A stretch of 64,000 nt of DNA from an uncultured Candidatus Saccharibacteria bacterium (GCA_964466475.1 CAYXNB010000001.1:44635-108634); one strand, 5' to 3'; positions 4,345 through 45,548 are shown, counted from the stretch's first letter. Numbers and translations are program-made. Notes: generated by a model from the letters alone, not told the origin.

Positions 4345-4370
4345 TTTTGTGTTTCTATCATACTAAAAAA

Positions 4371-19466: not shown

Positions 19467-19470
19467 GTGG

Positions 19471-20505: not shown

Positions 20506-20522
20506 GTTGTTTTCTTTATTAC

Positions 20523-21800: not shown

Positions 21801-21836
21801 GATTGCCTTACAATATCAAAGACCTTGCTCTTTTGT

Positions 21837-22862: not shown

Positions 22863-22901
22863 ACCTTGTCCTACCCTCTTTTTTCAATTACGCTTTTATA
22901 T

Positions 22902-23498: not shown

Positions 23499-23523
23499 TG
23501 GGTTATTCTGTATCATTCCATCC

Positions 23524-28697: not shown

Positions 28698-30601
28698 ATG
28701 TCCTTGTTTCGGACAAGCATTTCTATCTTCGACCCGTATTCCCGGTCTTCTGTTATTTTCCATACTTTCCATCCCAGCCCTTCCAGCTCCCTCCGCAAAG
28801 CGTCGCCTTCCGCGAGATCGGAAATCATGACGAGGCGGATTCTTTTGTCTTTGTCTATCCCCCGCGCCCTGTTTCCCCCCTTTTCCACGAAATCATAAAT
28901 CGCCTTCTCCTTTTCGGTTTCTTCTATGCTCCAGCGGTATTGTATCTGGGGAAAGACACCGTAGGTTACTCCCGCGACATACACGCTTCCGGCATATCCT
29001 CCTTTTTTTGCCTCTTTCATCGCATCACGATACGGATGGGGAATCTCCGAGAGAACGTGGTATTCCCCCCTCTTTTTTATAATTTCCGAAAATGATACTT
29101 TCAGATCTTCTGCCGGAATATTCAGCCGCGGCAGATCGCGAAACGTCCGTATGTTAAAGATAATAAGGAGCGCCGCAAGCGACGCGAAGCAGCCCCTTCC
29201 CCACCTTCCTCTTCGCGCGCACTCCCGGCCGATCAGCGCGAGACCGAGTACCGCAAGAGGAGCCACGTATTCCGCCTGATATCTGCCGATCCCCCAGAGG
29301 CCCGGGTGTATGGAATAAAACATGTATGCTGAAACGGCCATAAGCGACACGATGCCTGCTCCCCGCCTCAGGTCCCTTGAAAAGAGAATCGCCCCTGCCG
29401 CCGCCGCCACAACCCACGGCAGGAAAACAGAGTTTTCTATCGCGTTCCATACGATTCCCGTGCGGATTGCGTACCAGACCCGCATGATTCCAATATCCGC
29501 GTGCGGGATGTCCAGCCCTCCCGCTTCCGGCACATACGATGCCGTTGTGCCGTAAAGCAAACTTTTTGCCGCAAATGGCACCATAAGGAGGATCGGCGCA
29601 AGGGTCATCATAATCCTCTTTATGTCCCGTTCTTTCGTCTTCCAGCAGTGCGCCGCGTACCATATACCGAGAGGGACTATTGCGCCCATTGCCGACTGCC
29701 GCATAAGCGAGGTAATCGAAAGAAGCGCGAACCACCAGAAAAATGCATTTTCTTTTTTATCTTCGTCTTTTTCCGAAAACGAAAGGAGGAGGGCGGCCCA
29801 AAAAAGGGCTGCCCAGACGGACTGCTCCACAATAACGCCCGCGTGCCAGAGTACCGGAATGGTGCCTACCGCAAACGCGGCAAGGCGCGCGCCCGTTTTT
29901 CCGGCGTACGCGCGCGCGTAGCGATACACAACGAACATGATCCCCAGAAGCGCCGCGAATGCGGCCAGCCGAAAACCGAGACTCGTCATGCCAAAGATCG
30001 TCCCTCCCAGCCAAAGCGGGACGAAACGAAGAGGCGGGTGGGTTCCTTCGCTTCCCCCGAGGAGTATGACCGCACTTCTCGCCGCAAGAAAGACGCTGCC
30101 CCACGCGACAACTCGCGTCCACGCGCTTCCTTTTTTCCCCAATTTCCAAAACATATACGCTCCGGCGGCTATCGCGATATTTACGAAAACAATCGCGTCC
30201 GCATAAGCCGCGTTTCCGAACCATGCCGGCATATATCCGGCGAGTGTCTGCACTATTTTTATACCGGGCAATTCGGATCCCCCCGCGTGCGAAAACGCGT
30301 CTCCGACCATGGGGCGAAGGAGCGCGTTCCACGAAAGCAAAACCATGCCTGCGACAAACAAGACCGCGCTCCACGCGTCCTCTTTTCGGAATATAAACGT
30401 TTTCACATATGTTCCCTTTTCCGCGTGAAACGTAAAAAAGACAAATATGCCGAGAAGAAGCACGGCAAGGAGCGCGTTCCAAACCGCACCGAGCCCTCCG
30501 GTCAGCGCGCCAAAAAGCCCGTAATTCCAAAAAAAGGCGAAGGCGAGTATTCCGAAAATATTTACGCGAACCGCGTATTCTTTTTGTCGCTCTATATTCA
30601 T
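28694..30601 (-). CDS. GT-C superfamily polytopic membrane glycosyltransferase (ArnT/PMT-like) with C-terminal soluble domain
   Basis: More than 12 hydrophobic helices over 470 aa followed by about 170-aa soluble domain; paired with DPM1-like GT2 as in ArnC/ArnT, GtrB/GtrC and Dpm1/PMT systems; start at MNIERQKEY. Confidence 0.5.
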   Translation of the reverse strand: MNIERQKEYAVRVNIFGILAFAFFWNYGLFGALTGGLGAVWNALLAVLLLGIFVFFTFHAEKGTYVKTFIFRKEDAWSAVLFVAGMVLLSWNALLRPMVGDAFSHAGGSELPGIKIVQTLAGYMPAWFGNAAYADAIVFVNIAIAAGAYMFWKLGKKGSAWTRVVAWGSVFLAARSAVILLGGSEGTHPPLRFVPLWLGGTIFGMTSLGFRLAAFAALLGIMFVVYRYARAYAGKTGARLAAFAVGTIPVLWHAGVIVEQSVWAALFWAALLLSFSEKDEDKKENAFFWWFALLSITSLMRQSAMGAIVPLGIWYAAHCWKTKERDIKRIMMTLAPILLMVPFAAKSLLYGTTASYVPEAGGLDIPHADIGIMRVWYAIRTGIVWNAIENSVFLPWVVAAAAGAILFSRDLRRGAGIVSLMAVSAYMFYSIHPGLWGIGRYQAEYVAPLAVLGLALIGRECARRGRWGRGCFASLAALLIIFNIRTFRDLPRLNIPAEDLKVSFSEIIKKRGEYHVLSEIPHPYRDAMKEAKKGGYAGSVYVAGVTYGVFPQIQYRWSIEETEKEKAIYDFVEKGGNRARGIDKDKRIRLVMISDLAEGDALRRELEGLGWKVWKITEDREYGSKIEMLVRNKDI

Positions 30602-31779
30602 GTATTGCGTTTTCGTAAAATCACGCGTCTCTGAAGCGCCAATACGTTTGGAGCCGCGCGCGTCAGGATCCCGTCTATTGCCCGCACTACCCGCAAAAGC
30701 GCGCGGGGCAGCGGAAGAGAAATCGTGTTCGCGATTACTCCTCCGGAGTTGAGGAAGAGGAGGCATTCCGCCCATTCCTGTTTTTCCATATCGAAATACG
30801 GAACGCCCTTCCTGAACTTTTCCGCGTCGTCAAACAGCAGATTCGGGATCGCGCAGTTTGCGGACCAGGGATCTTCAGGGTCGTTGCACACGGATTTCCG
30901 GTCAAATACGTCCACCTCAAACGAATACCCTTCGTGGCGCATAAGGCGGAGAATAAAGCGCATCAAAAGCGACGCGTTTATTTCCTGAACATAGAGCCGT
31001 CCTCCGGGTTTTAAAATCCTGGCCATTTCCTGAAAAAATTCAAGCGGGCGCGCAAGGTGGTGGATCATGTTGTTTGAAACCACGAAATCGAATTCCGCGT
31101 CCCGGAAGGGTGTGCGGAGCGCGTCCACGTTTTTCGCGTCGAGCCAGGGGTGGTCCGCGCAGTCGGTCAGAAGAAATGATTTCGCCCGTATGAATTCTTT
31201 TGCCACGCCCGAACCGCATCCCACCTCGATCCCGCGTTCATGTTCCCCGATCTGCGCGCCCATCCATCCATACCGCTCGGCGAGCAGGAACTTCAGGTTC
31301 GGAGACCCCGGTCCGTAAAAACGCTTTCGCGCGGCTTCCACGTCCCCTTCGTGCCGCATCCGGTTTTCCTCATGACGCGCCCGATACGGGGCTCGGAGAA
31401 CTCTCCCCATAAACGGCAAGTCGTGGAATACGATGTATTTTAAGACGATAAAATTTATCGTTGCCGCAAAGCCGGTTGCCGCGGCATAGGCGAAAAGAGG
31501 AGACCCCAATACGCGAAGAAGGACGGCGTTTACCGCCACGTTGCCTCCCAGGGTTATCGCGTAGAGCGCGATGAATTTGATTATTTCACGCCTTGTGATC
31601 TTTTTTCTGCCAAATGTCCAAAACGCGTTTAGCGCGTATGATGCCGCGATGCCGCACAGAAACGCGATTGCCTTTGCCGCCGAAGGGTCGAGTCGGGAAA
31701 AAAGAAAGGCATAGACCCCGGCGTCAATAGCGAGAACCGCGAATCCGGAAATAATGAATTTTCCCGCTTGATTTCTCAT
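30598..31779 (-). CDS. GtrA-like 4-TM domain fused to class I SAM methyltransferase
   Basis: N-terminal 120 aa four-helix GtrA-family topology (FIISGFAVLAIDAGVYAFLF...FIVLKYIVF); C-terminal IEVGCGSGVAKEF (motif I) and ILKPGGRLYVQE. Confidence 0.6.
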   Translation of the reverse strand: MRNQAGKFIISGFAVLAIDAGVYAFLFSRLDPSAAKAIAFLCGIAASYALNAFWTFGRKKITRREIIKFIALYAITLGGNVAVNAVLLRVLGSPLFAYAAATGFAATINFIVLKYIVFHDLPFMGRVLRAPYRARHEENRMRHEGDVEAARKRFYGPGSPNLKFLLAERYGWMGAQIGEHERGIEVGCGSGVAKEFIRAKSFLLTDCADHPWLDAKNVDALRTPFRDAEFDFVVSNNMIHHLARPLEFFQEMARILKPGGRLYVQEINASLLMRFILRLMRHEGYSFEVDVFDRKSVCNDPEDPWSANCAIPNLLFDDAEKFRKGVPYFDMEKQEWAECLLFLNSGGVIANTISLPLPRALLRVVRAIDGILTRAAPNVLALQRRVILRKRNT

Positions 31780-31785
31780 GAGATG

Positions 31786-32601
31786 CTACGCCATTGTATC
31801 GAAAAATTTTTTCCATGCCGCATCCGCTCCCGTTTTCACCTCCGCTTCGCCAAAAACGCGGTACCGATATTCCCGCTCTTCGTATGCGTAGAGGTCCTCG
31901 GGCTTTCCCCACCCTACATAAAGATCTACGTCAAATATCACACTCTTTTTCCCCATCGCCCTGTAGAAGGCGGGCATGGAGTCCACGTAGAATTCGTTAT
32001 TTACCCTCGCCTCCGCCCGCACCATGGCGTCATAGCCCGCCAAAAAATTTTTGGCGCTTTTGAAATAAAAAGAAGCCACAATGGCGTGATCGTTATACGG
32101 ATTATCCGACACCGGAATTTTTACCGATACGTCTTCAATTGTTTTTTCATCTTTTTCCAGGCGCAGCCAACCCCACGCTTCCGGCTTTTCCCTCAAAAGT
32201 TCGTTTTTGGTAAAGGTCCAGATTACGGCATCCGCTTCGCTTTTTAGGGCGACGAACCTGTCTTCGTCGTACAAAAAACTATTGTCGCACGCGGCGATAA
32301 ATACTTCTTCTTCCGGAGGGAGGGTGCGGACCGCGCACGCGGAGGTTCCGGCCTGACCAACCGGATTTTCTTCCACCATCACTTCGGCATTCGGGACCTC
32401 GCGCCTTAAAAACTCGCCCAGCCGGAATTCCTCCTCGTGTTCCTTCCGTACCACGAATATGATTTTTTCGCTTTTCGGCAGACGCTCAACTGCCCGCAGA
32501 ATCATGGGCTTGCCCGAAACCGGAATAAGAGGCTTCGGCAAAAGATAGCCGCGGTCGGCAAACCTTTTGCCCTTCCCCGCCATGGGTACGATAGTTATCA
32601 T
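31786..32601 (-). CDS. Sugar/polyol-phosphate nucleotidyltransferase (NTP_transferase fold), paralog A
   Basis: IVPMAGKGKRF...YLLPKPLIPVSGKPMI N-terminal nucleotide-binding signature; substrate not assignable. Confidence 0.55.
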   Translation of the reverse strand: MITIVPMAGKGKRFADRGYLLPKPLIPVSGKPMILRAVERLPKSEKIIFVVRKEHEEEFRLGEFLRREVPNAEVMVEENPVGQAGTSACAVRTLPPEEEVFIAACDNSFLYDEDRFVALKSEADAVIWTFTKNELLREKPEAWGWLRLEKDEKTIEDVSVKIPVSDNPYNDHAIVASFYFKSAKNFLAGYDAMVRAEARVNNEFYVDSMPAFYRAMGKKSVIFDVDLYVGWGKPEDLYAYEEREYRYRVFGEAEVKTGADAAWKKFFDTMA

Positions 32602-32661
32602 TTTTTCATACTATGCTTTTGCATCCATACTCACAAGATGTTTCTCTCTCATTCCGTGAAA

Positions 32662-33471
32662 CTACCCCCGAATCCAGGCGGGGATTGCTACCACGTTTTC
32701 CCCTCGCGCTTTTTGGAAAACCTCGAGAGTCTCCTCTTTTACCACATAAAGCTCGTATCCCAATCGCGTCAATAAGCCAATCGCTTCCTTTATTTTATGC
32801 TCAAACTCCTCCACCGAATTCGTATATTCAAATAAAATGATCGGCTTGTGTTTTTCTATTATTTCTTTTCCGCTCAGTATCACTCTTGCGTCCGATCCGT
32901 CCGTGTCTATTTTTATAAAATCTAATTTTTTGAACGTTTTGCAAAATCTGTCGAGGGTAACGGTTTGCACACTTATTTTTTCCGTAAGTTCATAATTTTC
33001 CGGATATAAACTCGCGCTTTTGTTATGCATATTTTCCCCGGGGGAGTACAGGGTCATTGTTTTTTCTTCATTGTATATAGCAATTTCGTAGCAAGTAACA
33101 TTTTTTAGTTTGTTTAACAGCAAATTTTTTTTCAATCGCTTCATGAACTCTGGATGTGGTTCTATCGCGTGTACACACTCGGAATATTTTGCCATGGGCA
33201 AAGTATATATCCCCATATTCGCTCCGATATCCAAGCATACCGAACTTTTTGTGAGGAAATACTCAAGTATCCATATAACATCGTTTTCGTACCCTCTATC
33301 CCAGTATAATCTCCAATCCATTAAACGGCTCGTATCGCAGTGGATGAGCATTTTTTTGTAGGGGATGATGCCGACAAATTGGTTTTTCCCTCCCGGCCGG
33401 TCAAATAGCCGTATTATCCTGTGTCTTCCTTTGAATTTGACGTTCCGTAAAAAATCGCGTAGTCGGTTCAT
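32662..33471 (-). CDS. FkbM-family methyltransferase
   Basis: CLDIGANMGIYTLPMAKYSECVHAIEPHPEF matches Methyltransf_21/FkbM motif; gene is markedly AT-richer than neighbours. Confidence 0.65.
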   Translation of the reverse strand: MNRLRDFLRNVKFKGRHRIIRLFDRPGGKNQFVGIIPYKKMLIHCDTSRLMDWRLYWDRGYENDVIWILEYFLTKSSVCLDIGANMGIYTLPMAKYSECVHAIEPHPEFMKRLKKNLLLNKLKNVTCYEIAIYNEEKTMTLYSPGENMHNKSASLYPENYELTEKISVQTVTLDRFCKTFKKLDFIKIDTDGSDARVILSGKEIIEKHKPIILFEYTNSVEEFEHKIKEAIGLLTRLGYELYVVKEETLEVFQKARGENVVAIPAWIRG

Positions 33472-34376
33472 GTTTTATGTTTTGCCATTTTAAGATAATT
33501 TTCCCAATAGCAAAATATTTGGTCCATCTCGCTCTTCGAAAGAGGCGAGGGTCTGTCTTTTATGTCCGCGGGGCAGTTCTCCGGAACTTCTCTCTTTTTT
33601 TTGTTTTGTTCCAAAAAATTACACACTATACGCGTCCAAAACTCGTACTCCCGCAGGTCTTCGGGCGTGCCCCACTGGAGAAAATGGGATATCTTGTCGT
33701 ACACGCCGACACGGAGTCCGTCCTCGACGAGCAGGTTGTATACCAAACTGACGTAATATTCCCCTCCGAAACCCCTGTCTTGCCTTACGCATTCTTCAAA
33801 ATATTTTTTTACGTACGCCCCCTTCCTGAAATAATACGTGCCCGGAGAATGCATGGACTTCATTTTATCCTCTTCAAACGAATGTTTTTCCCTGATTTCC
33901 CTCAAAAGGCCTTGCGCGCCAACGCGCACGCTCGCGTACAGATTTTTTTCGCGGAGGAGGTGAGGATGGAATCCGGTATAGACCGGAACGCAGCCGTCAA
34001 AACCTTCCTCTGTCATTTTGTGGCAAAAGTCTCCATAATCCCATTTCATAAAAAAATCGCAATAGTTCACGATCACCGGCTCCTCGTCTTCGATGTACCT
34101 GCTTGCCGCGAGTGCCGCGGGGACCGGTCCGGGCACGATCGTTTCCACGACCGCGATCTTCGCTTTCGGTTTCTTCTTCATAATTACTTCTTCCATATTC
34201 GTTTTCTCCAGATGCTCTTTTCTGCATACGCAGACCACGTCTTCTTCTCCCGGAAACAGATCAAACACCCATTCGATCATGGGTTTCCCGTCCACGGGGA
34301 TAAGGGGCTTGGGGAGGAGGTATCCGGCATTTTTGAACCGCGCCCCCTCTCCCGCCATTGGTATAACTATTTTCAT
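33468..34376 (-). CDS. Sugar/polyol-phosphate nucleotidyltransferase (NTP_transferase fold), paralog B
   Basis: IVIPMAGEGARF...YLLPKPLIPVDGKPMI; 302 aa with C-terminal extension. Confidence 0.55.
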   Translation of the reverse strand: MKIVIPMAGEGARFKNAGYLLPKPLIPVDGKPMIEWVFDLFPGEEDVVCVCRKEHLEKTNMEEVIMKKKPKAKIAVVETIVPGPVPAALAASRYIEDEEPVIVNYCDFFMKWDYGDFCHKMTEEGFDGCVPVYTGFHPHLLREKNLYASVRVGAQGLLREIREKHSFEEDKMKSMHSPGTYYFRKGAYVKKYFEECVRQDRGFGGEYYVSLVYNLLVEDGLRVGVYDKISHFLQWGTPEDLREYEFWTRIVCNFLEQNKKKREVPENCPADIKDRPSPLSKSEMDQIFCYWENYLKMAKHKT

Positions 34377-35371
34377 ACTCCTTTCATAAGGCGGACCCTC
34401 GCCTTTTCGCTTTCCATTTCACGGAGCCGGCGCCGCTCTTCCTCGGGAAGCCCCTGCCATGACCACCCCCTCCGCGCGATCTCTTCCATAATGTAGAGCC
34501 AGGCAACCAAAGTTTCTTCTTTTGCGAGAGATTCCGCCTCCCCCCCACGGTAATATATCTCCCCGTTTTCTTCCACCGCCATATCGCCGCAAAACACTTC
34601 CTGATCCGGAAAAAGGACCGCTTTTTGAAATTTCTTCATGTATTCCGGATTTTTTCGTGCCATCTCCCGAATATATTCCGTGCCGCTTTTCCACCCGCCT
34701 TCCGGCGCCTCTGCCATCCGGCGGACCACCCTCACCTCCGGATACCCGATCTCTCCGCCCTCGCGGAGCGCCTCATGCAGAGCGTCATGAAGACCCAGGG
34801 CGCGAGATGCGCTTTCTGCCGTTGTAATTACTCCGTGATTTTCCAGTATCCATACGCCGATATTTTCTCTTTGCCTTTTCTTTTTCTCTTCCCGTATCGC
34901 TTCCGCGAGCGGAATTCCTGGCGTACAGTACGGAATCCATGCCCAGGGCGCGCCGATCTTTTTTCCCGCGTGTTTTATCGCATCCCTTCCCTCTTTCGCG
35001 CAGGCAAAGACGTTTCCATAGACAGAATGTGTGTGGATCACGAAATTATCGAGAAGGGCATGAAACCCGGTTTCTATGGAGGGCCGAAGCGACTTTCCTC
35101 CGGAGTCCACGATCAGTTTTCCGAACGCCTCCTCTTCTCTCATTTCCTGCCACAGAGTTCCCTCGTAATAGGCGCGCGACTCTTTTTCCCGAAGCATCAC
35201 GATACCGACATTTTCTTGCACGTCTTCCAAACGATATCCCGATGCCTTGATCGCCATTTTTCCCTCTCCCTTTACGGAAATGTTCCCTCCCCCGCCCTGC
35301 ACAAAATCGGGACGCCCCCCCAGGACGCGCGCGATCCGCTCGATCTCTTTTGTGCCTTCCTTTATATCCAT
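34373..35371 (-). CDS. Class II aldolase/adducin-domain protein (fuculose-phosphate aldolase / ribulose-5-P 4-epimerase fold) with C-terminal extension
   Basis: GGGGNISVK N-terminal motif and RPSIETGFHALLDNFVIHTHSVYGNVFAC (metal-binding His cluster); start at MDIKEGTKEI. Confidence 0.6.
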   Translation of the reverse strand: MDIKEGTKEIERIARVLGGRPDFVQGGGGNISVKGEGKMAIKASGYRLEDVQENVGIVMLREKESRAYYEGTLWQEMREEEAFGKLIVDSGGKSLRPSIETGFHALLDNFVIHTHSVYGNVFACAKEGRDAIKHAGKKIGAPWAWIPYCTPGIPLAEAIREEKKKRQRENIGVWILENHGVITTAESASRALGLHDALHEALREGGEIGYPEVRVVRRMAEAPEGGWKSGTEYIREMARKNPEYMKKFQKAVLFPDQEVFCGDMAVEENGEIYYRGGEAESLAKEETLVAWLYIMEEIARRGWSWQGLPEEERRRLREMESEKARVRLMKGV

Positions 35372-37482
35372 GATTCTTGCGATTTCATCCGCCCAAATAT
35401 GACATAGACGAGAAGAATCTGAATCACGCCTTCGTGCCCATTTTTCCATTCCGGGTCTTCCCGCGCTGCGTCCCAAAGCTCCGGAAGGATCCGGTAGGCG
35501 ATTTTTTCTATCGCTTCTTTCGATATATCTCCCCGAATCTCCCCCCGCTGCCTTTCCTCAAAGAGTTCGTGCTCCACGCCCATTCCCTCTTCCGCAAGCG
35601 CGACAAGGAGCGGGTCCATACCCACGCTGTTCGCGCATTCCCAGCCGATGATTACGGAACGTTCTCCATCCCCGCTTTTGGGCGCGATTATCAGGTCCGC
35701 GTATTTTTTCTGCGCCTGTATGAATATCCGATCCTTTTCCCGTTTTTTTATCTGCTCAAGCACGCCCTCCTTCGCCTTGCCGCGCTCCCGCATGTCCCGC
35801 TCCATTTTCCAGCGCAAACGCAGGTCTTCGTCCGTATCCATAAACACCCTCATGTCGAGACGCCTTCTCATGCTTTCCAAAAACAAAGAATGCAGGCCTT
35901 CAAAAACAACAATCCGCTTGGACTCCAGTTTTTCCGGCAGAGTAAATCTGCCCGAGGAGTGGTCGTACCTTCTTCGTTCTACCGGACGCCCCTCCTTTAA
36001 CTTCGCCACGGATTCCACTTCTCCGTGAAGGTTGTTCGCGCGGGGATCGAGGTGCGTGAAGGCTTTCCACGCCTCGTGCCCCCGCTCCCATTTGTGCGCG
36101 TCATCCCCTTCTATGATCGCGGTGTTTTTTTCGCCGAACACGGCGCGCAAAAAACGCGCGACCGTGCTTTTACCGGAACCGGAATCACCCGAAATTCCCA
36201 CGAGATAGGGCTCGTAGTATATTTTGTATTTTGTATTGCTCTCCACCCCTTTTTTATAAATCCATATCACATTTACGAGAAGCGCGGTCTGCAGGAGAGT
36301 AAAGATGATCCGGAGAATTTTTTCCGCACTCCATCCGGCTCGCGCAAGAACCGCGTACGCGCGGGGAATGACTCCCGCGGACTCCGGCGACAGGGGGAAG
36401 AACGCTCCGGGAATATCCGAGTTCGGTACAAGGAGGAAGAAGAGGATGTAGAGTGCTTGCAGAGCCGCGAAAGCGTATCGGGGCGCGTTTTCTTGCTTTA
36501 TGTAAAAATACAGAAGGAATGGCAGTACCCAGTAGTACCAGCCGGGCATGGGCGCGATGAGCGCGGTCAGTATCCCGAAACTAAATCCGAGAAACATAAG
36601 GAATATGTCGCGATTATACCGCCGAAACGCCAAACTTCTCACGAAGAGCGCGACATAGACCGCGGGCACGATGTAGATCACCGCCCCCGCTCCAAGGACT
36701 ATTTTCAGGTCAAAAATCTTCTCTCCCTCTTCTCCTCCCGTTATCACGCGGCGAAATTCCGCCGAAGAAAGGAAGGGCGCGTTTGCCAGAATCCATGTTC
36801 CGAATGTCAGGCAAAAAAACGCTCCCGCCCTCCGGAGCCCGCCCGCGCCGATCCGAAATACGTACACAAGAGTAAAAGGGACGAGCGCCAAAATATGAAT
36901 TTTCGCGGCAATGGCGATACCAAGGAACACTCCCGCCTCTTTCCATTTTTCCTTGCAGAGGAAGTACAGAGCGACGAAGAGGAACATGATGGGAACGGAA
37001 TCCAGCTGTCCGTGCACGTAGTTGATATAAAAAAGGACCGGAGAGCACCAATAATAGATGAGAACTTTTTTCTCCTTTCCCTTCAGCCATCGCGCGAGAA
37101 TAAGCAAAATAACAATATCCGCGAAAAGGATCGGCAAGCGGTAGAGAAAAAGATCGAGATGAGAGATTCCTTCCGCCGCCCGCATGATCGGAGCAAGCAA
37201 TATGCCCGGAAGCCCGACAAACCAGAGCATGATCGCGCCATACGGAAAGTGGGCCGCTCCGCCCGCGCTCGCGAAATACTCATAAGGATTCTGGAACCCG
37301 CTTTGCCCGTAGTAGTTCAGAAAGGGAATAAAAAGCCGCGTTAAAAATTCCGACCCGAAGAGCGCGGCCGCAGCGAGTTTTATTCCGAGCGCCGCCAAAA
37401 AAACAGGCGATTTCAAAATACCCACCTTTGATCTGCCGTCTTTTTCTCTTAATGCGCCGCCTGCTTTTCGTATCCAGTTCAT
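35362..37482 (-). CDS. Fusion protein: N-terminal polytopic membrane domain (GT-C/DUF2029-like, about 420 aa) + C-terminal uridine-kinase/phosphoribulokinase-family P-loop domain
   Basis: C-terminus YLVGISGDSGSGKSTVARFL (Walker A), YDHSSGRF, IVVFEGLH, DMRVFMDTDEDLRLRWKMERDMRERGK match Udk/PRK family point by point; N-terminus more than 10 TM helices. Confidence 0.6.
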   Translation of the reverse strand: MNWIRKAGGALREKDGRSKVGILKSPVFLAALGIKLAAAALFGSEFLTRLFIPFLNYYGQSGFQNPYEYFASAGGAAHFPYGAIMLWFVGLPGILLAPIMRAAEGISHLDLFLYRLPILFADIVILLILARWLKGKEKKVLIYYWCSPVLFYINYVHGQLDSVPIMFLFVALYFLCKEKWKEAGVFLGIAIAAKIHILALVPFTLVYVFRIGAGGLRRAGAFFCLTFGTWILANAPFLSSAEFRRVITGGEEGEKIFDLKIVLGAGAVIYIVPAVYVALFVRSLAFRRYNRDIFLMFLGFSFGILTALIAPMPGWYYWVLPFLLYFYIKQENAPRYAFAALQALYILFFLLVPNSDIPGAFFPLSPESAGVIPRAYAVLARAGWSAEKILRIIFTLLQTALLVNVIWIYKKGVESNTKYKIYYEPYLVGISGDSGSGKSTVARFLRAVFGEKNTAIIEGDDAHKWERGHEAWKAFTHLDPRANNLHGEVESVAKLKEGRPVERRRYDHSSGRFTLPEKLESKRIVVFEGLHSLFLESMRRRLDMRVFMDTDEDLRLRWKMERDMRERGKAKEGVLEQIKKREKDRIFIQAQKKYADLIIAPKSGDGERSVIIGWECANSVGMDPLLVALAEEGMGVEHELFEERQRGEIRGDISKEAIEKIAYRILPELWDAAREDPEWKNGHEGVIQILLVYVIFGRMKSQESWI

Positions 37483-38162
37483 TGCGTTTCTTCCATTACC
37501 ACGGAGGGGATTCCGGCTAGTTCCGCGCCTTTCGCGTCCTTTGTTTCCGCGTCTCCTATCATGATCACGTCTTCGGCGCGCATGCCCAACTTGCGAAGCG
37601 CGAGGGCGAATATCGGCCTGTCCGGCTTTTCCGCTCCCGCCTCTTCGGAAGACGCCATCGCGCGCAGAAGTCCGTCCAGGCCCAGGCGCTGTATTTTTTT
37701 CATCTGAATACGCGCGGTCATGTCCGTTACGATAACTACGGGCTTTCCGGCTTTTTTACACCACAAAAGAAATTCTTGCGCGCCCTTTCTTGCCCGCATG
37801 GCGCTCAAAAAATTCTTCCAATACGCTTCTTCCATTGCGAGAACTCTCCCCGTCCGGAGCGCGCCTTCTTCCTTTTCCACGTACCGCTGAAAGTATAATA
37901 CCCTTGAGTGGCACGCGGCCTGCGCCGGAATATGTTTTTTCACCTCGGCCCGCGCCTCCCGGTACGCCTCTTCAAATTTTTGGAAGGATATGTTTTTTCC
38001 TTTTCGCGCCTCTTTCCATGCCGCGCGGAGTGCTTTTTTGTGGCACCTCTCGTAGGAGTAGAGCGTGCCGTCCAGATCAAGGAGCACCCCCTTCGCCCCT
38101 TCCACGAGGCGCCTTACCTCCCTGAACGACGAGGCGCGGGTCTGCCGCATATTATGTTTCAT
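37479..38162 (-). CDS. HAD-superfamily hydrolase
   Basis: Motif I VLLDLDGTL, motif IV IMIGDAETKD; start at MKHNMRQ with ATGA overlap; track N-terminal extension discarded. Confidence 0.65.
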   Translation of the reverse strand: MKHNMRQTRASSFREVRRLVEGAKGVLLDLDGTLYSYERCHKKALRAAWKEARKGKNISFQKFEEAYREARAEVKKHIPAQAACHSRVLYFQRYVEKEEGALRTGRVLAMEEAYWKNFLSAMRARKGAQEFLLWCKKAGKPVVIVTDMTARIQMKKIQRLGLDGLLRAMASSEEAGAEKPDRPIFALALRKLGMRAEDVIMIGDAETKDAKGAELAGIPSVVMEETQ

Positions 38163-38758
38163 ATTTCTTTTTCCCATTCGGCAACCCACTCCTTTCCCGC
38201 CATGACCGCGTCCAATTCCACGCCCAGGTCCCGAAGGGCTTTTCTGTACGGAACAATGTCTTTCCCCCGTCCCCATCGGTCCGGGGACACAAGACAGATT
38301 TTCCATTCCGGCAATATACCTACCACTTCTTCATTCAACGGCAGAGACGAGATGGTGTCAATCCAGAGCCAGTCCGCCCTTCCCTTGTATCGCTCCGCGA
38401 GATGGTAACACTCTTCTTCGCTCAGCCGCACCGCGATCTCGCGCGCACCCTCGCGAGTCGCGCGATACAAGTACGGAAACTCCACGTCAAGCAAAAAATA
38501 ATTATTTGGCGGAATGCCATACTTCTCGGCGAGATTCCTGCACCCCTCTTCGATTCCTGCTTCTTTTATATTGAATATGATGAAGGCGTGTTTATATTCG
38601 CGAAGATAATCATCAAGGTACTCTCCGCGCCCGGGATCGTGGTTTAGATAGAGGCGATCGCTCCCCGGATCGTGACGCACGTCAACCTCTACCCCGTATC
38701 GCGCGGGGATTCTTTGCAGTTCATTCCTGGTATTTACCCGATGGATGATAATAATCAT
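38159..38758 (-). CDS. Small glycerophosphodiester-phosphodiesterase-like (GP-PDE/PLC-like TIM barrel) protein
   Basis: IIIIHRVNTRNELQ...VEVDVRHDPGSDRLYLNHD follows the GP-PDE H-R...E...E-x-D-x-R...HD catalytic pattern; only 199 aa. Confidence 0.4.
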   Translation of the reverse strand: MIIIIHRVNTRNELQRIPARYGVEVDVRHDPGSDRLYLNHDPGRGEYLDDYLREYKHAFIIFNIKEAGIEEGCRNLAEKYGIPPNNYFLLDVEFPYLYRATREGAREIAVRLSEEECYHLAERYKGRADWLWIDTISSLPLNEEVVGILPEWKICLVSPDRWGRGKDIVPYRKALRDLGVELDAVMAGKEWVAEWEKEI

Positions 38759-38763
38759 TTCTC

Positions 38764-39549
38764 CTACTCCTCAATTCTTTCACGGAACGATTCTTTTAGC
38801 ATTCGCACGAGCGACCCCTCCTCGATTCCCAGAAGTTCCTCAAATTCTTTTTGTTCCATTTCCGTTGCCTTAAGCTGCACCTCGTCCAAGGGCTTCCCCT
38901 CGAATTTTTCTCTAAACAAATCCATAAACTCCCTGTTGTACCCGCGCTTCCCGGCCTCCAGAATTCTTGCCCGAAAGTCGCTTATTTCCGACCCTCCGAC
39001 CACGTGGTCAGCAAGATGAATTATTTTTTCCCCGATCGGGCGATTTTTCAAGTACTCCTCGCTCGCCTCTTCCGGCGTATTCGCGGAGGTAAGGCGTACC
39101 ACGTCTTCGGGCACCCCGAGCCGGCGCAGTGCCTCCTCGTCTTTTTCTCCGGACTCCTTATATCCGCGCCGCACTCCCCATCCGCGCATCAGAAGCACCT
39201 CCCATTTCTTCATCCAGTCGTGCAATATCGCGGCGCTCGTTATTTTTTGTCTTTCTTCTTCCGGTAACGCAAGGCGTTCTCCCAAAATATCCGCCACGAC
39301 TCCCACCATAAGCGTGTGCTCTCCGGCCACTTTCCAGTCGTCATCCGTTATCATCCAGGGCACCGCGTCCTCTTTGCTTTTCTTTACCCTTCTTCCCCCG
39401 CGAACTATCGTGCGCTCTCCCCATATTCCGCCTTTTTCCAGAATATTTTTTTCCCGCGGATGACTCTCCGCGAAACGTTCCAAATACGCCCTTCTTTTTT
39501 CCGGGTCTATATGTATCTCTTCGGGTTGTGTTTGTTTTTCAAAATTCAT
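38764..39549 (-). CDS. HD-domain phosphohydrolase-like protein
   Basis: AAILHDWMK and IHLADHVVG consistent with H...HD...H...D metal-dependent phosphohydrolase. Confidence 0.4.
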   Translation of the reverse strand: MNFEKQTQPEEIHIDPEKRRAYLERFAESHPREKNILEKGGIWGERTIVRGGRRVKKSKEDAVPWMITDDDWKVAGEHTLMVGVVADILGERLALPEEERQKITSAAILHDWMKKWEVLLMRGWGVRRGYKESGEKDEEALRRLGVPEDVVRLTSANTPEEASEEYLKNRPIGEKIIHLADHVVGGSEISDFRARILEAGKRGYNREFMDLFREKFEGKPLDEVQLKATEMEQKEFEELLGIEEGSLVRMLKESFRERIEE

Positions 39550-40349
39550 TGTTTTTTCTTTTTATCTTCCCCGCGAAGACGGCTGTTTACCTCATGCGCA
39601 ACCTCGATGAGGCGCAGCCGCATGTTTAATTCTTTTGCCCTTTGCGCGATTGCCTGCGTGTCTTTTGGAAAACAAAATCCGCCATAACCGCGATAACCAT
39701 CATCGTGCACGTCCCAGTGGCTGCTCCCTATTCTCGGGTCATGCACCAGACATTTTTTTACTGCGTCATAATTCGCATCGCCCAGCGCTTCGCAAAGATC
39801 ATATATTTCGTTCGCGAAAACGACTCGCGTCGCGAGATACGAATTTATCCAATATTTCAAAACCTCGGCTTCGGTTGAGGTTGTGATTTCCGAAAAATCC
39901 GCTTTTGGCAAAAGTTCCAAAATTTTCGGCGCGACTTTTTTTCCTTTTTCGCTTGCGTATCCGACCACCTGAATACTGGGATGTAAAAAATCCTCTTTCG
40001 CGGTTTTCGCGCGGAGAAATTCCGGATTGAAGAGAATGACCTTTTTCGGGCACATCTCCTGGAATTTTTTGGTGGAACCCGGGACGATGGTGGATTTTAT
40101 AACCGCGATTTTTCCGTCCTCGATGTTTGCCAAGGACTCCCTGACCGCGGAGTCGTCATACCCCCTGCCGTCCTCGTGGAACGGAGTGGGGACCGCGATA
40201 AAAATTATGTCCGCCCTGTTTACCTCCTCTACAGAGCCGATTTTTTTGAATTTGTCGTAGGCGAAGACATCCGCCCCATGCGATTCGAACCATTCTTTTA
40301 TAGGAGTGCCCACATATCCCAGGCCGATTATTCCGATTTTTTCTTTCAT
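39546..40349 (-). CDS. Truncated (mini) UDP-glucose/GDP-mannose dehydrogenase family protein lacking the C-terminal UDP-binding domain
   Basis: MKEKIGIIGLGYVG, KSTIVPGST, catalytic GGFCFPKD; ends about 30 aa after the catalytic Cys (267 aa vs about 390-450 normal); ATGA-coupled to UXS gene. Confidence 0.65.
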   Translation of the reverse strand: MKEKIGIIGLGYVGTPIKEWFESHGADVFAYDKFKKIGSVEEVNRADIIFIAVPTPFHEDGRGYDDSAVRESLANIEDGKIAVIKSTIVPGSTKKFQEMCPKKVILFNPEFLRAKTAKEDFLHPSIQVVGYASEKGKKVAPKILELLPKADFSEITTSTEAEVLKYWINSYLATRVVFANEIYDLCEALGDANYDAVKKCLVHDPRIGSSHWDVHDDGYRGYGGFCFPKDTQAIAQRAKELNMRLRLIEVAHEVNSRLRGEDKKKKQ

Positions 40350-41293
40350 GGTACTGCTTTGAAATATTGTATGGTGCGCATAAGACCCTCCTCAAGCAGA
40401 ACTTTCGGTTCCCACTTCAAATGTTTTTTTGCCTCGGTTATGTCCGGACGGCGGCGGCTCGGATCGTTTTCCGGCAGTTTTGTGTGTATGATTTTGCTTT
40501 TACTCCCGGTGAGCTGAATAATAATCTCCGCGAGCCGTTGGATCGTATGCTCTTCGCCCGGATTCCCCAAGTTTATGGGGCCTGTCCCCCCATGCCGCAT
40601 CATGCGGCACATGCCCTCCACCAGATCGTCCACATATTGAAAACTTCTGGTATGCGATCCATTCCCATAGATCGTGATGTTTTCTCCCCGGAGCGCCTGG
40701 TTGACGAAATTTGAGATCACCCTGCCGTCGTCCGGGCACATGCGCGGCCCGTATGTATTAAAAATGCGGATTACTTTTACATCCACGTTCCGCTCGCGGA
40801 AATAGTCAAAGCACAAAGTTTCGGCCGCGCGTTTGCCTTCGTCGTAGCACGCGCGGGGGCCTGTGGGATTCACATTCCCCCAGTAGGTTTCTTTTTGCGG
40901 ATGCTCTTCGGGGTCGCCGTACACCTCGGAAGTCGAGGCCTGGAGAAGTTTTGCCTTCTTTTTTTGCGCGAGGTCAAGAAGATTTTTCGTGCCCAGTACA
41001 TTGGTACACAATGTGAAAACAGGATTTTTTTGATATTGCGGTGGCGAGGCGGGCGAGGCGAGGTTGTAAATCTCGTCTATATTTCCCGTAATCGCGAGGG
41101 GACGAATAATATCATGTTTCAGAAAGCGAAATCGCGGCTCCTTTTTCAGGTGTGCCATATTCTCCTTTCTGCCGGTTACAAAATTGTCCACGCAAAACAC
41201 TTCGTATCCGTCCCGTAGCAGGCGATCGGCGAGGTGCGAACCGATGAATCCCGCTCCGCCCGCTACCAGCGCTTTTTTATACCCCCTTTTCAT
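40346..41293 (-). CDS. UDP-glucuronate decarboxylase (UDP-xylose synthase, UXS/ArnA-decarboxylase family)
   Basis: ALVAGGAGFIGSHL, diagnostic VDNFVTGRKENM, Y-x3-K (YDEGKRAAE), 315 aa. Confidence 0.85.
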   Translation of the reverse strand: MKRGYKKALVAGGAGFIGSHLADRLLRDGYEVFCVDNFVTGRKENMAHLKKEPRFRFLKHDIIRPLAITGNIDEIYNLASPASPPQYQKNPVFTLCTNVLGTKNLLDLAQKKKAKLLQASTSEVYGDPEEHPQKETYWGNVNPTGPRACYDEGKRAAETLCFDYFRERNVDVKVIRIFNTYGPRMCPDDGRVISNFVNQALRGENITIYGNGSHTRSFQYVDDLVEGMCRMMRHGGTGPINLGNPGEEHTIQRLAEIIIQLTGSKSKIIHTKLPENDPSRRRPDITEAKKHLKWEPKVLLEEGLMRTIQYFKAVP

Positions 41294-41897
41294 CGTCGTA
41301 TATTTTCTTTAATTCGATGACCCGCACATCATTCGGCCAATAACGGAGCGTCTTGTCCGAGAATTCCAAAATTTTTTTCCCGTCCTCTTTTACCCTGTAG
41401 AGGTCAAGCATTCCGTAGAGCGCGGGCGGAAGTTTCGGGGCGATATCCAAGACTTTTTTGTAGTACGCTTCCGATTTTTCAAAGTATCCATCTTTTCGGA
41501 ATTGCAGCCACAGGAAATGGTGCAGACGCGCGAGGTTGACTAGGTGCAGAACGTCTTCCTGGTCGGAATACCCTTCGATAAAAGTCACGAGATCCATAGA
41601 TACCTCTTCCGGCTGGATACCTTTCGATACCAGCGTGATAATGTCTCCCTGAATGAACTTTACTATCTCGTCATCGGATATCGGGGCGTTAAAATCCAAG
41701 ACGCGCCTGAAATTCTCTTTAAAGGCGGGTGCGCTCTGCACGCTTCGCGCCCCTTGGAGCGCCTCGATGTATCGCCTCGCCTTTTGGAGCGGCAGGTACG
41801 CCCCGAAGTAGAGTGAGAGGACGCAGAGAATGATCCCGCATGCACCTGCCGTGTATTTAAACGCGTTTTTCATGATGTTCCTTTCCATACGCAACAT
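41277..41897 (-). CDS. Hypothetical membrane-anchored protein
   Basis: Single N-terminal TM (GACGIILCVLSLYFGAY) then soluble domain; no motif. Confidence 0.35.
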   Translation of the reverse strand: MLRMERNIMKNAFKYTAGACGIILCVLSLYFGAYLPLQKARRYIEALQGARSVQSAPAFKENFRRVLDFNAPISDDEIVKFIQGDIITLVSKGIQPEEVSMDLVTFIEGYSDQEDVLHLVNLARLHHFLWLQFRKDGYFEKSEAYYKKVLDIAPKLPPALYGMLDLYRVKEDGKKILEFSDKTLRYWPNDVRVIELKKIYDDEKGV

Positions 41898-43191
41898 ACC
41901 AGCCGAAGGCGAGCATAATGAATATATTGATATAGATCACGAGCACGTCGAAAAGCACCAGCCCCTGAACCAGGTACGCCGCGGGCAGGGCAAAAATCGC
42001 CCCCATAACCCCGGAAGGCAGGTTTAGAAATTTTCGTTTTTTCCACAATCCCCAGTAGAATGCCGCAAACATGGAAACATAACTTACAAGACCGATCACG
42101 CCTCCGGCAACCAGATAATCAAAAAACACGTTGTGCGCCCTGTCAAACCACGCTCCGAATCCTTCTTCCGGTTTAAAATACGCGGGATTGAAGTTCTTTT
42201 GAAACAGGTATCCGAAATTTTCAGGCCCCCAACCCAGTACGGGCCGCTCCTTGAAACTTTCCCATGCAATACCCCACATGATGGTCCGGTGTTCAAAGGT
42301 CTCTGCCGTGAACGAAATGTCAAATATCCTCGATCCCGGTATCCGCCGCACGAACTCGTTTTCCCGAAAAGTCACCAAAAGGACTCCCGTGATCGCAAGT
42401 GCCGCTCCCACACCTATCGCCCACTTTCTCCATGACCTGTTCGATAGCGCCACGTAGGCGAGCATTATAAACGCTCCGGCCCCGAGCCCCAAAAACGCCC
42501 CACGGGTCGCGGCAAGCAAAAATGCTGCTCCAAAGACCGCGAGCATGCACCAGATAACGAGCGCTCCCGGAGATCTCCAAAGATGCCGCCGATACAGGGT
42601 AAAGAGAAGGTAGAATCCGTAAAACGCCGAAAAAATGAGGTACGCTGCCACATAGGCCGGATTCCCAATGGAGCCCTGGAATCGGAAGGCGGGGTCTTCG
42701 AACGTAGGCCCTATGAATCCGTTGTACCCCGCGCCCGCGCCCAGACCATAGAGCAGCATCAGGATCGCGCTCCAAAGCCCCACCCAAAAAAATTTTCTCC
42801 AGTGCTCTTCTTTGGTAAAAAGCGCTATGAGCAGAAAAAAGAAAATCCCCAGATGGATTATCTGGAGCGCCCCTTCGCCCCGCTCGAAATTTGACCAAAA
42901 CGCGACGACGCGGTTTCTCGCGAATGCGGCGGAGAGGGTGAAAAAAAATACGAACGAAGCAACCGCAAGGGTGAGCGGCTTTTTCCATGCTTCCGCGATT
43001 CTTTTTTTATCCTCTTCTTTGTTTTTTTCAAACAGAAGCCCGAGGATGAAAAAAATCAGGGAAATATCCATAATGCCCCTGAACCAAACGTATTTCCCCA
43101 CTATAAAGGGAAAGAGCGTGCTCTTGGTTACGATCGCTATCGTTACCGGCGCAAGGTAAAGAAAGAGGCGGGATATGGAGAAATACGGCAT
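41857..43191 (-). CDS. Wzy_C-family membrane protein (O-antigen ligase / O-oligosaccharyltransferase-like)
   Basis: 12 TM; ATRGAFLGLGAG and periplasmic loop with RAHNVFFDYLVAGGVIG typical of Wzy_C (WaaL/PglL/PilO family). Confidence 0.75.
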   Translation of the reverse strand: MPYFSISRLFLYLAPVTIAIVTKSTLFPFIVGKYVWFRGIMDISLIFFILGLLFEKNKEEDKKRIAEAWKKPLTLAVASFVFFFTLSAAFARNRVVAFWSNFERGEGALQIIHLGIFFFLLIALFTKEEHWRKFFWVGLWSAILMLLYGLGAGAGYNGFIGPTFEDPAFRFQGSIGNPAYVAAYLIFSAFYGFYLLFTLYRRHLWRSPGALVIWCMLAVFGAAFLLAATRGAFLGLGAGAFIMLAYVALSNRSWRKWAIGVGAALAITGVLLVTFRENEFVRRIPGSRIFDISFTAETFEHRTIMWGIAWESFKERPVLGWGPENFGYLFQKNFNPAYFKPEEGFGAWFDRAHNVFFDYLVAGGVIGLVSYVSMFAAFYWGLWKKRKFLNLPSGVMGAIFALPAAYLVQGLVLFDVLVIYINIFIMLAFGWYVAYGKEHHEKRV

Positions 43192-43223
43192 AGCGCCATC
43201 ATATCACAGGTTGCTACGACCTG

Positions 43224-45479: not shown

Positions 45480-45520
45480 ATGCCCTATTCTGCCAGGTTT
45501 TTTGTTTATCCTCAAGAAAT

Positions 45521-45548
45521 CCAAAAACCGCCCGAAGGCGGTTTTTGG
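45521..45548. terminator. Bidirectional rho-independent terminator hairpin (CCAAAAACCGCC-CGAA-GGCGGTTTTTGG)
   Basis: Perfect 12-bp stem with A/T-run flanks immediately downstream of the surface-protein gene stop (45588). Confidence 0.6.

Follow-up and report, generated by a model that had tools for sequence, protein, structure and literature searches.

A widely shared, horizontally mobile gene cassette in an uncultured Saccharibacteria bacterium that may feed a ribulose 5-phosphate-derived sugar into lipid-carrier glycosylation

Three-component glycosylation systems, exemplified by the Gtr-type systems of Shigella and Salmonella phages (GtrA/GtrB/GtrC), by ArnC/ArnE-F/ArnT and by mycobacterial MtxS/MtxT, are close described counterparts of a locus from an uncultured Candidatus Saccharibacteria bacterium, located in a stretch of 64,000 nucleotides (GCA_964466475.1, CAYXNB010000001.1:44635-108634) that was analysed at full length and is called the window here. 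Both the known systems and the locus feature a small cytoplasmic-face GT2 glycosyltransferase, a GtrA-family protein and one or more GT-C glycosyltransferases, organized as a mobile cassette. The known Gtr-type systems use housekeeping UDP-Glc or UDP-Gal, whereas the cassette in the window adds five or six conserved genes (PRK-like kinase, HAD, class II aldolase, two nucleotidyltransferases, GDPD-like protein) that must make a dedicated donor, and one of its GT-C-like domains is fused to the kinase. The transfer half of the cassette is of the known Gtr/Arn kind, as it contains a GtrA and a GT-C together with a GT2 assigned at family level only, while the feeder half is without a described counterpart.

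Eight genes of this locus, at 31786-39549, had been singled out by an earlier reading of the sequence alone (the original prediction). They are part of a widely shared, uncharacterised cassette, which probably converts ribulose 5-phosphate to an activated sugar of an unusual kind that is then added, by way of a lipid carrier, to glycans of the cell surface. We lean modestly towards the fuller reading that the region is one instance of a conserved cassette for glycan decoration that moves horizontally, namely a three-component lipid-carrier glycosylation system equipped with its own pentulose-phosphate-derived sugar pathway. The observations that bear on it are the identities of the domains, the conservation of catalytic residues, synteny, fusions of genes and two feeder sets that exclude each other.

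Pentose decoration through lipid carriers is known from the phosphoribosyl pyrophosphate (PRPP)-dependent pentofuranose systems, which comprise PPPRS/UbiA-PRP, a MATE flippase and a GT136 GT-C (Kelly et al. 2024, PMC11127046), and from mycobacterial decaprenylphosphoryl-ribose and -arabinose (DPR/DPA) synthesis. Like these, the module in the window would lead from a pentose-phosphate metabolite to a polyprenyl-phosphate pentose for side-chain addition by a GT-C, with a HAD phosphatase removing the 5-phosphate in both. It differs in having neither a UbiA synthase nor DprE1/E2, in a GT2 donor that would derive from a nucleotide sugar, and in entry by a phosphoribulokinase (PRK)-like enzyme instead of PRPP. 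No published description of the module or of a PRK/GT-C fusion was found in a literature search with little coverage of subscription journals.

All eight ORFs lie on the minus strand, separated by short gaps or overlapping by 4-10 nt, and occupy the positions originally given. The same genes were obtained by independent gene calling on the source contig (Logan SRR5011273), from which the starts of the HAD gene (38150) and the aldolase gene (35371) were taken. Long plus-strand ORFs overlapping these genes are without support, and the whole window shows a strong minus-strand coding bias. Searches against Pfam and NCBIfam, with further comparison against PDB sequences, confirmed most of the predicted domains, including two NTP-transferases with their motif, an FkbM methyltransferase, a class II aldolase, a HAD phosphatase and an HD hydrolase. 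The functional unit exceeds the flagged coordinates, extending downstream to 27978 and thereby adding a GtrA-methyltransferase fusion, a PMT_2 GT-C and a GT2.

The genes co-occur far beyond chance. Homologues of nucleotidyltransferase 1 (NT1; 271 aa, 31786-32601) and of the GDPD/PI-PLC-like protein (199 aa, 38159-38758) number in the hundreds to thousands, and the named ones come mostly from Patescibacteria and DPANN archaea. Three neighbourhoods of NT1 homologues, two bacterial and one archaeal, share the order GDPD-like protein, HAD, transmembrane (TM)-PRK fusion, aldolase, nucleotidyltransferase 2 (NT2), NT1, methyltransferase, membrane protein of 550-590 aa and GT2, with 31-57% identity to the window proteins, so that this order recurs in bacteria of the candidate phyla radiation (CPR) and in a DPANN archaeon. 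A scan for the GDPD-like family with one genome per species yielded 80 loci, in CPR (Liptonbacteria, Doudnabacteria, Kazan, Kerfeldbacteria, Gracilibacteria, SR1 and Parcubacteria), in DPANN (Woese-, Pace- and Nanoarchaeota) and in Bacteroidota, Verrucomicrobiota, Armatimonas, Acidobacteria, Lentisphaerota and Spirochaeta metagenome-assembled genomes (MAGs); the taxon labels of some MAGs may be unreliable.

Co-occurrence was counted in 32 of these loci, each from a different species and with at least 8 kb on either side of the GDPD-like gene, by crude ORF calling and blastp (E <= 1e-5) of the genes within 9 kb. An NT1-like nucleotidyltransferase was present in 30/32 and a GT2 likewise in 30/32, both together in 29/32; NT2 was found in 21, the PRK fusion in 17, and the HAD and the long aldolase in 15 each, with the HD hydrolase in 0/32. 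The invariant core is accordingly the GDPD-like protein, NT1 and GT2, usually accompanied by GtrA and a GT-C, and it was encountered in CPR bacteria, DPANN archaea, Bacteroidota, Verrucomicrobiota, Legionella, Azospirillum, Hirschia and two E. coli plasmids. Several fusions tie the parts together: NT2-NT1 in Proteobacteria, GtrA-methyltransferase in the window, GtrA-ribulose-phosphate-3-epimerase (RPE) in the second feeder set described below, and the membrane domain-PRK fusion everywhere, with GtrA additionally fused to it in the archaeon. On the grounds of synteny and fusions, chance juxtaposition was rejected. The original prediction had proposed comparative genomics to see whether the set co-occurs as a unit; it does so across phyla and domains of life, except that the HD and FkbM genes, like a neighbouring UDP-glucose dehydrogenase (UGDH)-like gene, are lineage-specific.

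The core is served by one of two feeder sets. Feeder set 1, the type in the window, consists of PRK, HAD, long class II aldolase and NT2. In 20 loci all four are replaced by feeder set 2, with PRK in 0/20. It is composed of the GtrA-RPE fusion, which in some cases bears a Pol-beta-type NTP_transf_2 domain; a His_Phos_1 phosphatase, frequently carrying an NTP_transf_2 domain at its N-terminus; a 2H (2',5'-RNA-ligase-like) phosphoesterase; and a class II enzyme of canonical form (235 aa) that scores above the threshold for L-ribulose-5-phosphate 4-epimerase (AraD; 317 vs 257 bits). The sets are mutually exclusive, a pattern of non-orthologous displacement. As set 2 contains RPE and AraD and set 1 contains PRK and its companions, both appear to start from pentulose 5-phosphates and to feed the same core of GDPD-like protein, NT1 and GT2.

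Compact versions of the cassette exist in cultured bacteria. A tblastn search of plasmids with the GDPD-like protein retrieved the E. coli IncR plasmid NZ_CP145712.1, Azospirillum brasilense MTCC4039 plasmid p5 and Hirschia baltica ATCC 49814 pHbal01, and a compact eight-gene cassette is also present in the Legionella sainthelensi chromosome (LR134178.1). The gene order on the E. coli, Azospirillum and Hirschia plasmids is fused nucleotidyltransferase, GtrA, GT2, GDPD-like protein, TM-PRK, HAD, long aldolase and a membrane protein of ~580 aa. The E. coli cassette (NZ_CP145712.1, positions 6022-14984, in the 6022-17325 region) is carried on a 33-kb IncR plasmid, where it adjoins IS26, in strain S1-CAM-01-A from human stool, and E. 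coli ES3, a bullfrog strain, has an identical copy on one of its plasmids. Among 5426 complete E. coli genomes, megablast and sensitive blastn alike detected it in only two, each time on a plasmid. No match was obtained in 50,697 phage records or in IMG/VR.

In L. sainthelensi (4343-9681 and 10001-18922), the cassette adjoins a UbiA-HAD fusion, a DprE1-like FAD_binding_4 protein, a DprE2-like adh_short protein and a 612-aa membrane protein. By its domains this neighbour looks like a PRPP-dependent arabinofuranose-type three-component system, which would place two pentose-decoration systems in tandem. No UbiA domain was detected in the window region or in the cassettes, the only one belonging to this separate neighbouring module. 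The presence of a separate pentofuranose module beside the cassette indicates that the two kinds of system are distinct and not redundant.

The entry enzyme of feeder set 1 is a 706-aa fusion (35362-37482) of a polytopic membrane domain (aa 1 to ~415, with ~9-10 predicted hydrophobic segments) and a C-terminal P-loop kinase domain (aa ~420-706; Pfam PRK, 136 bits). It had been described as a Udk fusion, and the fusion was borne out while the Udk assignment was not. Among PDB sequences the kinase domain scored 132 bits with a phosphoribulokinase of cyanobacteria but only 76 bits with uridine kinase, and among NCBIfam models 186.7 bits against the PRK model NF005655 and 104-105 bits against udk. 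All 25 orthologues matched the NCBIfam PRK model far better than udk (best 8e-64 vs 2.5e-30). Conserved at 90% or more in 33 sequences of the family are the GDSGSGKS P-loop, D460/D461, R467, H508 and K559/R562/D563/R567, all of which align with PRK (structure 6hzk), D461 and H508 with its catalytic Asp/His dyad as defined in PMC9978339. The membrane domain gave weak, recurrent GT-C matches among 26 orthologues, to GT87 in six, ALG3 in five and Alg6_Alg8 in three (best E 6.9e-8). Judged by these comparisons, the protein is best described as a PRK-like domain fused to a GT-C-resembling membrane domain and not as a plain Udk fusion.

The HAD phosphatase (223 aa, 37479-38150) matched NF053830, the haloarchaeal ribulose 1,5-bisphosphate (RuBP) 5-phosphatase family, over its full length at 194.9 bits, the next family reaching 108 bits. 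NF053830 is the top family for 27/27 orthologues (best E 4.9e-60), and the HAD DxD motif, D25/D27, is invariant. In experiments, the enzyme from haloarchaea specifically turned RuBP into ribulose 1-phosphate (PMC9700705). The original prediction held that sugar-1-phosphate-forming enzymes are lacking here; the PRK-like kinase and the RuBP 5-phosphatase-like HAD speak against this, as they constitute a plausible ketose-1-phosphate-forming pair. The sequence of kinase, bisphosphate, HAD phosphatase, sugar 1-phosphate and nucleotidyltransferase resembles the nucleotide-heptose pathway (HldE, GmhB, HldE/HddC). The differences are that the module kinase is of the PRK/Udk P-loop family instead of PfkB, that the phosphate would sit on the non-anomeric C1 of a ketose, and that the second nucleotidyltransferase and the GDPD-like protein are without counterparts there.

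The same two enzymes could also be read as a nucleoside (uridine/cytidine) kinase and a YjjG-like pyrimidine nucleotidase that tune the nucleotide supply of the nucleotidyltransferases, with no RuBP involved. The RefSeq name 'uridine kinase' of the E. coli copy, the udk scores and the 93 bits of the HAD against the YjjG family are in keeping with that explanation. It is nevertheless very unlikely, given the far higher PRK scores in every orthologue and in the PDB comparison, a RuBP phosphatase score about twice that of YjjG in 27/27 HADs, and the RPE and AraD of feeder set 2, which are pentulose-phosphate and not nucleotide enzymes.

The long class II aldolase-fold enzyme (332 aa, 34373-35371; Aldolase_II, 77 bits with a cut-off of 22.2) has as its best family, in 24/24 orthologues, the RhaD-ADH type, that is, the aldolase domain of bifunctional rhamnulose-1-phosphate aldolase/SDR proteins. 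The window protein scored 51 bits against this type (equivalog cut-offs 568-1213), 24 bits against ribulose-1-phosphate (Ru1P) aldolase and 21 bits against AraD, and exceeded no equivalog cut-off of the specific class II enzymes FucA, RhaD, AraD, Ru1P aldolase and MtnB. Across the family, the best E was ~1e-24 for the RhaD type vs 7e-10 for the FucA-type Ru1P aldolase. E100, H113, H115 and H179, the acid/base Glu and the Zn-binding His triad, are invariant in 24 sequences, giving an intact metal site, and the phosphate-loop residues G26, G28, G29, N30 and S32 are invariant as well.

A RuBP phosphatase-like gene next to a class II aldolase gene is also the arrangement in the operon for haloarchaeal non-carboxylating pentose bisphosphate pathway enzymes (Sato et al. 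2022, PMC9700705), where a related HAD is encoded beside a class II aldolase-fold enzyme. The module differs from it in that RuBP would come from a PRK-like kinase instead of ribose 1,5-bisphosphate (R15P) isomerase, in its long RhaD-type aldolase and in its biosynthetic, membrane-linked context. This adjacency allows a catabolic or salvage explanation, whereby PRK, HAD and aldolase run a non-carboxylating pentose-bisphosphate route to dihydroxyacetone phosphate and glycolaldehyde and sit in a glycan cluster by accident. Such a role is hardly credible: producing RuBP from ribulose 5-phosphate at the expense of ATP and then cleaving it would make no sense energetically, there is no linked R15P isomerase or nucleoside phosphorylase, and the kinase is fused to a membrane GT-C-like domain. 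Moreover, linkage to the nucleotidyltransferases, GT2, GtrA and GT-C is kept across domains of life and on plasmids, and the aldolase is closer to the RhaD type than to the FucA-type Ru1P aldolase (51 vs 24 bits in the window protein).

Both nucleotidyltransferases, NT1 and NT2 (302 aa, 33468-34376), belong to the sugar-1-phosphate type. Both carry the motif MAGxGxRF...LPKPLIPVxGKPMI that the original prediction quoted. NT1 matched NTP_transf_3 and NTP_transferase and NT2 matched NTP_transf_3 (42.6 bits), all above the Pfam cut-offs, and each is ~26-30% identical to the orthologues of the other. The hallmarks of sugar-1-phosphate nucleotidyltransferases (RmlA/GlmU/GalU superfamily), namely GxGxR, the catalytic Lys and the acidic and Lys residues that bind the sugar phosphate, are conserved in the NT1 family (G9, G11, R13, K23, Q83, D106, K161, D207) and in the NT2 family (G9, G11, R13, K23, D107, E163, K164), and HddC is among the few PDB relatives of both. 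Against the IspD model PF01128, NT1 reached 19 bits with a cut-off of 27 and NT2 gave no match, and scores against TIGR00453 were 18-21 bits with a cut-off of 181.

In E. coli, Azospirillum and Hirschia the two are fused to one protein of 556-588 aa, NT2 being N-terminal and NT1 C-terminal. Homologues of the fused protein number thousands, with Legionella sainthelensi and Crenobacter among the named organisms. The fusion is also unusually conserved: with NZ_CP145712.1 6022-7692 as query, the top 120 clusters are 79-99% identical, a range that holds over more than 100 clusters defined at 90% identity, drawn from many metagenomes. One variant of 680 aa (P0339) has an added GtrA domain.

The GDPD-like protein matched no Pfam or NCBIfam model at E <= 0.01 and no PDB sequence, either by phmmer or by hmmsearch with a profile of 40 homologues, and its more than 1000 homologues are all labelled 'hypothetical'. 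An AlphaFold (AF2) model built on the alignment of 40 homologues reached a pLDDT of 96.7, compared with only 41.6 for a single-sequence model. The best 14 Foldseek matches of the model were all GDPD TIM barrels (E 8.5e-6 to 2.8e-4, TM 0.58-0.67), including 3ks5, 1zcc, 2pz0 and 3qvq. Invariant residues are H6, R7, N9, E24, D26, R28, H40, N63, K65, E66, D91 and E93, among which H6-R7, E24-x-D26 and H40 resemble the GDPD pattern HR...ExD...H in sequence. The earlier label 'GDPD-like' thus stands at the level of predicted fold and motif, where the protein may be viewed as a putative metal-dependent phosphodiesterase, and fails as a sequence-based family membership.

The family has representatives in other settings. 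The Liptonbacteria contig JACOXY010000011.1 encodes two paralogues (L010 and L014), one in a full module and the other without nucleotidyltransferase, GT2 and PRK partners. On the Scandinavium goeteborgense plasmid NZ_CP054057.1 (9001-10692), a distant GDPD-like protein, 29% identical, adjoins a HAD phosphatase in an ABC-transporter-type O-antigen cluster. This match was rejected as a member of the module, as it is distant and comes without nucleotidyltransferase and PRK, and may represent a different use of the family.

The original prediction itself had likened the set to polyol-phosphate or ketose-phosphate activation of the CDP-ribitol/CDP-glycerol kind, which could install a phosphodiester-linked substituent on the glycan. 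In such a model the GDPD-like, HAD and HD phosphoesterases would trim or edit the substituent. The company of two nucleotidyltransferases and three phosphoesterases fits this, as does the GDPD fold, given that GDPD substrates are phosphodiesters. Feeder set 2 contributes a Pol-beta-type NTP_transf_2 domain, whose fold is common to LicD/fukutin-type phosphotransferases. Ribulose 5-phosphate is the known entry point to CDP-ribitol, and the module indeed shares that starting compound and a nucleotidyltransferase with the CDP-ribitol/CDP-glycerol routes (TarI/TarJ, TagD).

It differs from those routes in being without a reductase and a phosphotransferase and in nucleotidyltransferases that are not of the IspD/TarI type. 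Neither a TarJ-like reductase nor a TagF, LicD or CDP-alcohol phosphotransferase is conserved in the related loci; the nucleotidyltransferases score as sugar-1-phosphate enzymes, with IspD below threshold (19 vs 27 bits); the HD hydrolase is not conserved; and the invariant GT2, GtrA and GT-C move glycosyl residues via polyprenyl monophosphate. The phosphodiester model, and with it a phosphodiester-linked substituent, is therefore unlikely. Of the proposed activation, ketose-phosphate chemistry is the best lead, with the PRK-like kinase, the RuBP 5-phosphatase-like HAD and the ketose-1-phosphate-aldolase-like enzyme all pointing to it; the CDP-ribitol- or CDP-glycerol-like polyol is not supported.

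The membrane half of the unit begins with a fusion of a GtrA-family membrane domain, a putative flippase or anchor, and a class I S-adenosylmethionine (SAM) methyltransferase (30598-31779, minus strand; GtrA_DPMS_TM, PF04138, 62.7 bits with a cut-off of 26.1; Methyltransf_11, 55 bits). GtrA, as a separate gene or as a domain, likewise belongs to the cassettes of E. coli, Azospirillum, Hirschia and Legionella, and the methyltransferase part has a Hirschia orthologue of 44% identity. The PMT_2-type GT-C glycosyltransferase (28694-30775, minus strand, with a true start probably downstream of 30775) scored 42.5 bits against PMT_2, with a cut-off of 26.1, and has ~10 predicted hydrophobic segments. 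A membrane protein of 530-630 aa stands at the equivalent place in related loci and matched PMT/PMT_2 in locus L070. The GT2 of the DPMS/GtrB/ArnC type (27978-28772, minus strand, likely start 28697) matched Glycos_transf_2 at 85 bits, above the cut-off, has no predicted TM segment and shares 46-52% identity with its counterpart GT2 in each of the related loci. It is a putative polyprenyl-phosphate sugar synthase, assigned at family level.

Upstream of the eight genes, a UDP-glucuronate decarboxylase (UXS) gene, which with the truncated UGDH-like gene (267 aa, 39546-40349) spans 39546-41293 on the minus strand, encodes a bona fide UXS (398 bits against human UXS1) and is a recurrent accessory neighbour of the module. 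An orthologue of 60% identity lies directly upstream of GT2 in Hirschia, and several loci have UXS-like genes close to the module, those in L043 and L074 at 50-59% identity. The trio of GT2, GtrA and GT-C might then transfer an ordinary sugar, for instance xylose from UDP-xylose supplied by the adjacent UXS, with PRK, HAD, aldolase, the nucleotidyltransferases and the GDPD-like protein forming a co-located but separate pathway for another substituent or metabolite. Most loci, however, lack UXS, among them the self-contained cassettes of E. coli and Legionella; the NT1 homologue accompanies GT2 and the GDPD-like protein in 29/32 loci; and the NT2-NT1 and GtrA-RPE fusions, together with P0339, physically link precursor enzymes to the membrane machinery. 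Transfer of an ordinary sugar in this way is accordingly considered quite improbable.

The favoured reading, a lipid-carrier system with its own pentulose-phosphate-derived sugar pathway, can be laid out as a series of steps, in which we infer every substrate, the step order, which sugar is made and what the GDPD-like protein does. The PRK-like domain would phosphorylate ribulose 5-phosphate to RuBP, from which the HAD would strip the 5-phosphate to leave ribulose 1-phosphate, by the kinase-then-phosphatase logic of heptose 1-phosphate synthesis. The aldolase-fold enzyme would then remodel this ketose 1-phosphate, perhaps epimerising C4 by a retro-aldol and an aldol reaction, and NT2, NT1 and the GDPD-like protein would yield a nucleotide-activated glycosyl donor. 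GT2 would load the sugar on polyprenyl phosphate, GtrA would aid the membrane crossing, and the PMT_2 protein and the GT-C-like membrane domain of the kinase fusion would pass the sugar to a surface glycan. The methyltransferase may often O-methylate the sugar.

Several points weigh against this pathway. No protein of the set reached an NCBIfam equivalog cut-off, which agrees with the earlier statement that the set maps onto no standard nucleotide-sugar pathway. The kinase score of 186.7 bits lies below the curated cut-off of 236 for NF005655, and of the 326 profile positions the domain covers only 7-184, so that the second, C-terminal half of PRK is absent or replaced. The HAD, at 194.9 bits, misses the NF053830 equivalog cut-off of 330. 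The GT-C call for the membrane domain of the fusion is based on sub-threshold matches, and the GT2 scores of 43 bits for ArnC and 41 bits for Dol-P hexose transferase are far below the equivalog cut-offs (ArnC, DPMS). Ribulose 1-phosphate carries its phosphate on a non-anomeric carbon and would give no glycosyl donor directly by a conventional route of nucleotidyltransferase and GT2, so an extra step must be postulated for the GDPD-like protein. A true UXS stands beside the module in the window and in Hirschia, so GT2 might simply use UDP-xylose. No module-carrying organism was found with a solved glycan structure that could be linked to the module, and the one E. coli host examined, the strain from human stool, has an O35-type wzx/wzy O-antigen cluster, which is neither O95 nor O97 and is not a xylulose-containing serogroup.

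A more specific version of the favoured pathway, which is speculative and in our estimate doubtful, is a route, not described before, by which a ketopentofuranose (ribulo- or xylulofuranose) becomes nucleotide-activated and in which the phosphate walks along the sugar. NT2 would turn ribulose 1-phosphate, made by PRK and then HAD, into an NDP ester, on which the GDPD-like protein would use the anomeric 2-OH to form a 1,2-cyclic phosphate, whose opening would leave the phosphate on the anomeric C2. NT1 would then form NDP-2-ketopentofuranose, GT2 would convert it to polyprenyl-phosphate-ketopentofuranose and a GT-C would transfer the sugar. In feeder set 2, the Pol-beta-type nucleotidyltransferase, the His-phosphatase and the 2H cyclic phosphodiesterase would fill the same roles. 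Such a route would account for the second nucleotidyltransferase, for the obligatory GDPD-like protein and for the 2H cyclic phosphodiesterase of set 2.

The glycans of E. coli O95 and O97, Y. enterocolitica O:10, C. jejuni RM1221 and Devosia contain xylulofuranose, whose biosynthesis genes are unassigned and for which the cassette is a candidate. The 5426 E. coli genomes, a collection in which the presence of O95/O97 is uncertain, neither supported nor refuted a link between the cassette and xylulose-containing serogroups. If correct, the ketopentofuranose route would explain the genetically unassigned origin of xylulofuranose and give RuBP and a PRK homologue a role outside carbon fixation.

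The broader reading, if true, would define a new nucleotide-sugar pathway from ribulose 5-phosphate and a function outside the Calvin cycle for PRK-like kinases of non-autotrophs. In CPR and DPANN genomes, PRK homologues are otherwise read as partial Calvin cycle markers, and a glycan-linked PRK-like family would be a caveat for metagenomic 'carbon fixation' calls. It would also mean a widespread, unrecognised surface decoration in CPR, DPANN, Bacteroidota, Verrucomicrobiota, Legionella, plant-associated Alphaproteobacteria and E. coli plasmids, and would provide roles for more than 1000 'hypothetical' GDPD-like proteins. The compact eight-gene cassette of the E. coli plasmid makes the model directly testable.

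Three genes within or next to the module in the window, those for the HD hydrolase, the FkbM methyltransferase and the UGDH-like protein, were rejected as core parts, as they are not conserved. The HD-domain phosphohydrolase (38764-39549, minus strand; HD, 27 bits) is apparently co-transcribed here and stands outside the conserved module, with no homologue in any of the 80 related loci. The FkbM-family methyltransferase (32662-33471, minus strand; Methyltransf_21, 76 bits; TIGR01444, 105 bits) is a lineage-specific accessory, rarely conserved in related loci, and a TylF-type methyltransferase takes the equivalent place in L002, L004 and L087; a methyltransferase of varying family is thus a frequent accessory of the module. 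The UGDH-like gene is rare in related loci. Translationally coupled between the HD gene and the UXS gene, it encodes the NAD-binding and central domains only, without the C-terminal UDP-binding domain.

Directly upstream of the module lie two consecutive genes for Wzy_C/O-antigen-ligase-like membrane proteins (41857-45524 and 45588-49082, both on the minus strand), the second with TPR repeats, and the pair adjoins a gene whose 1164-aa product has a peptidoglycan-binding domain. Elsewhere in this long minus-strand cluster lies, at 13709-24627, a separate deoxy/amino-sugar toolkit, which comprises GDP-mannose 4,6-dehydratase, several SDR epimerases/reductases, two DegT aminotransferases, a C-methyltransferase (Methyltransf_14) and a GT2-methyltransferase fusion. 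In addition, a group I catalytic intron is found near tRNA genes at 59186-59437 on the minus strand, matching the full-length Rfam model RF00028 at 84 bits.

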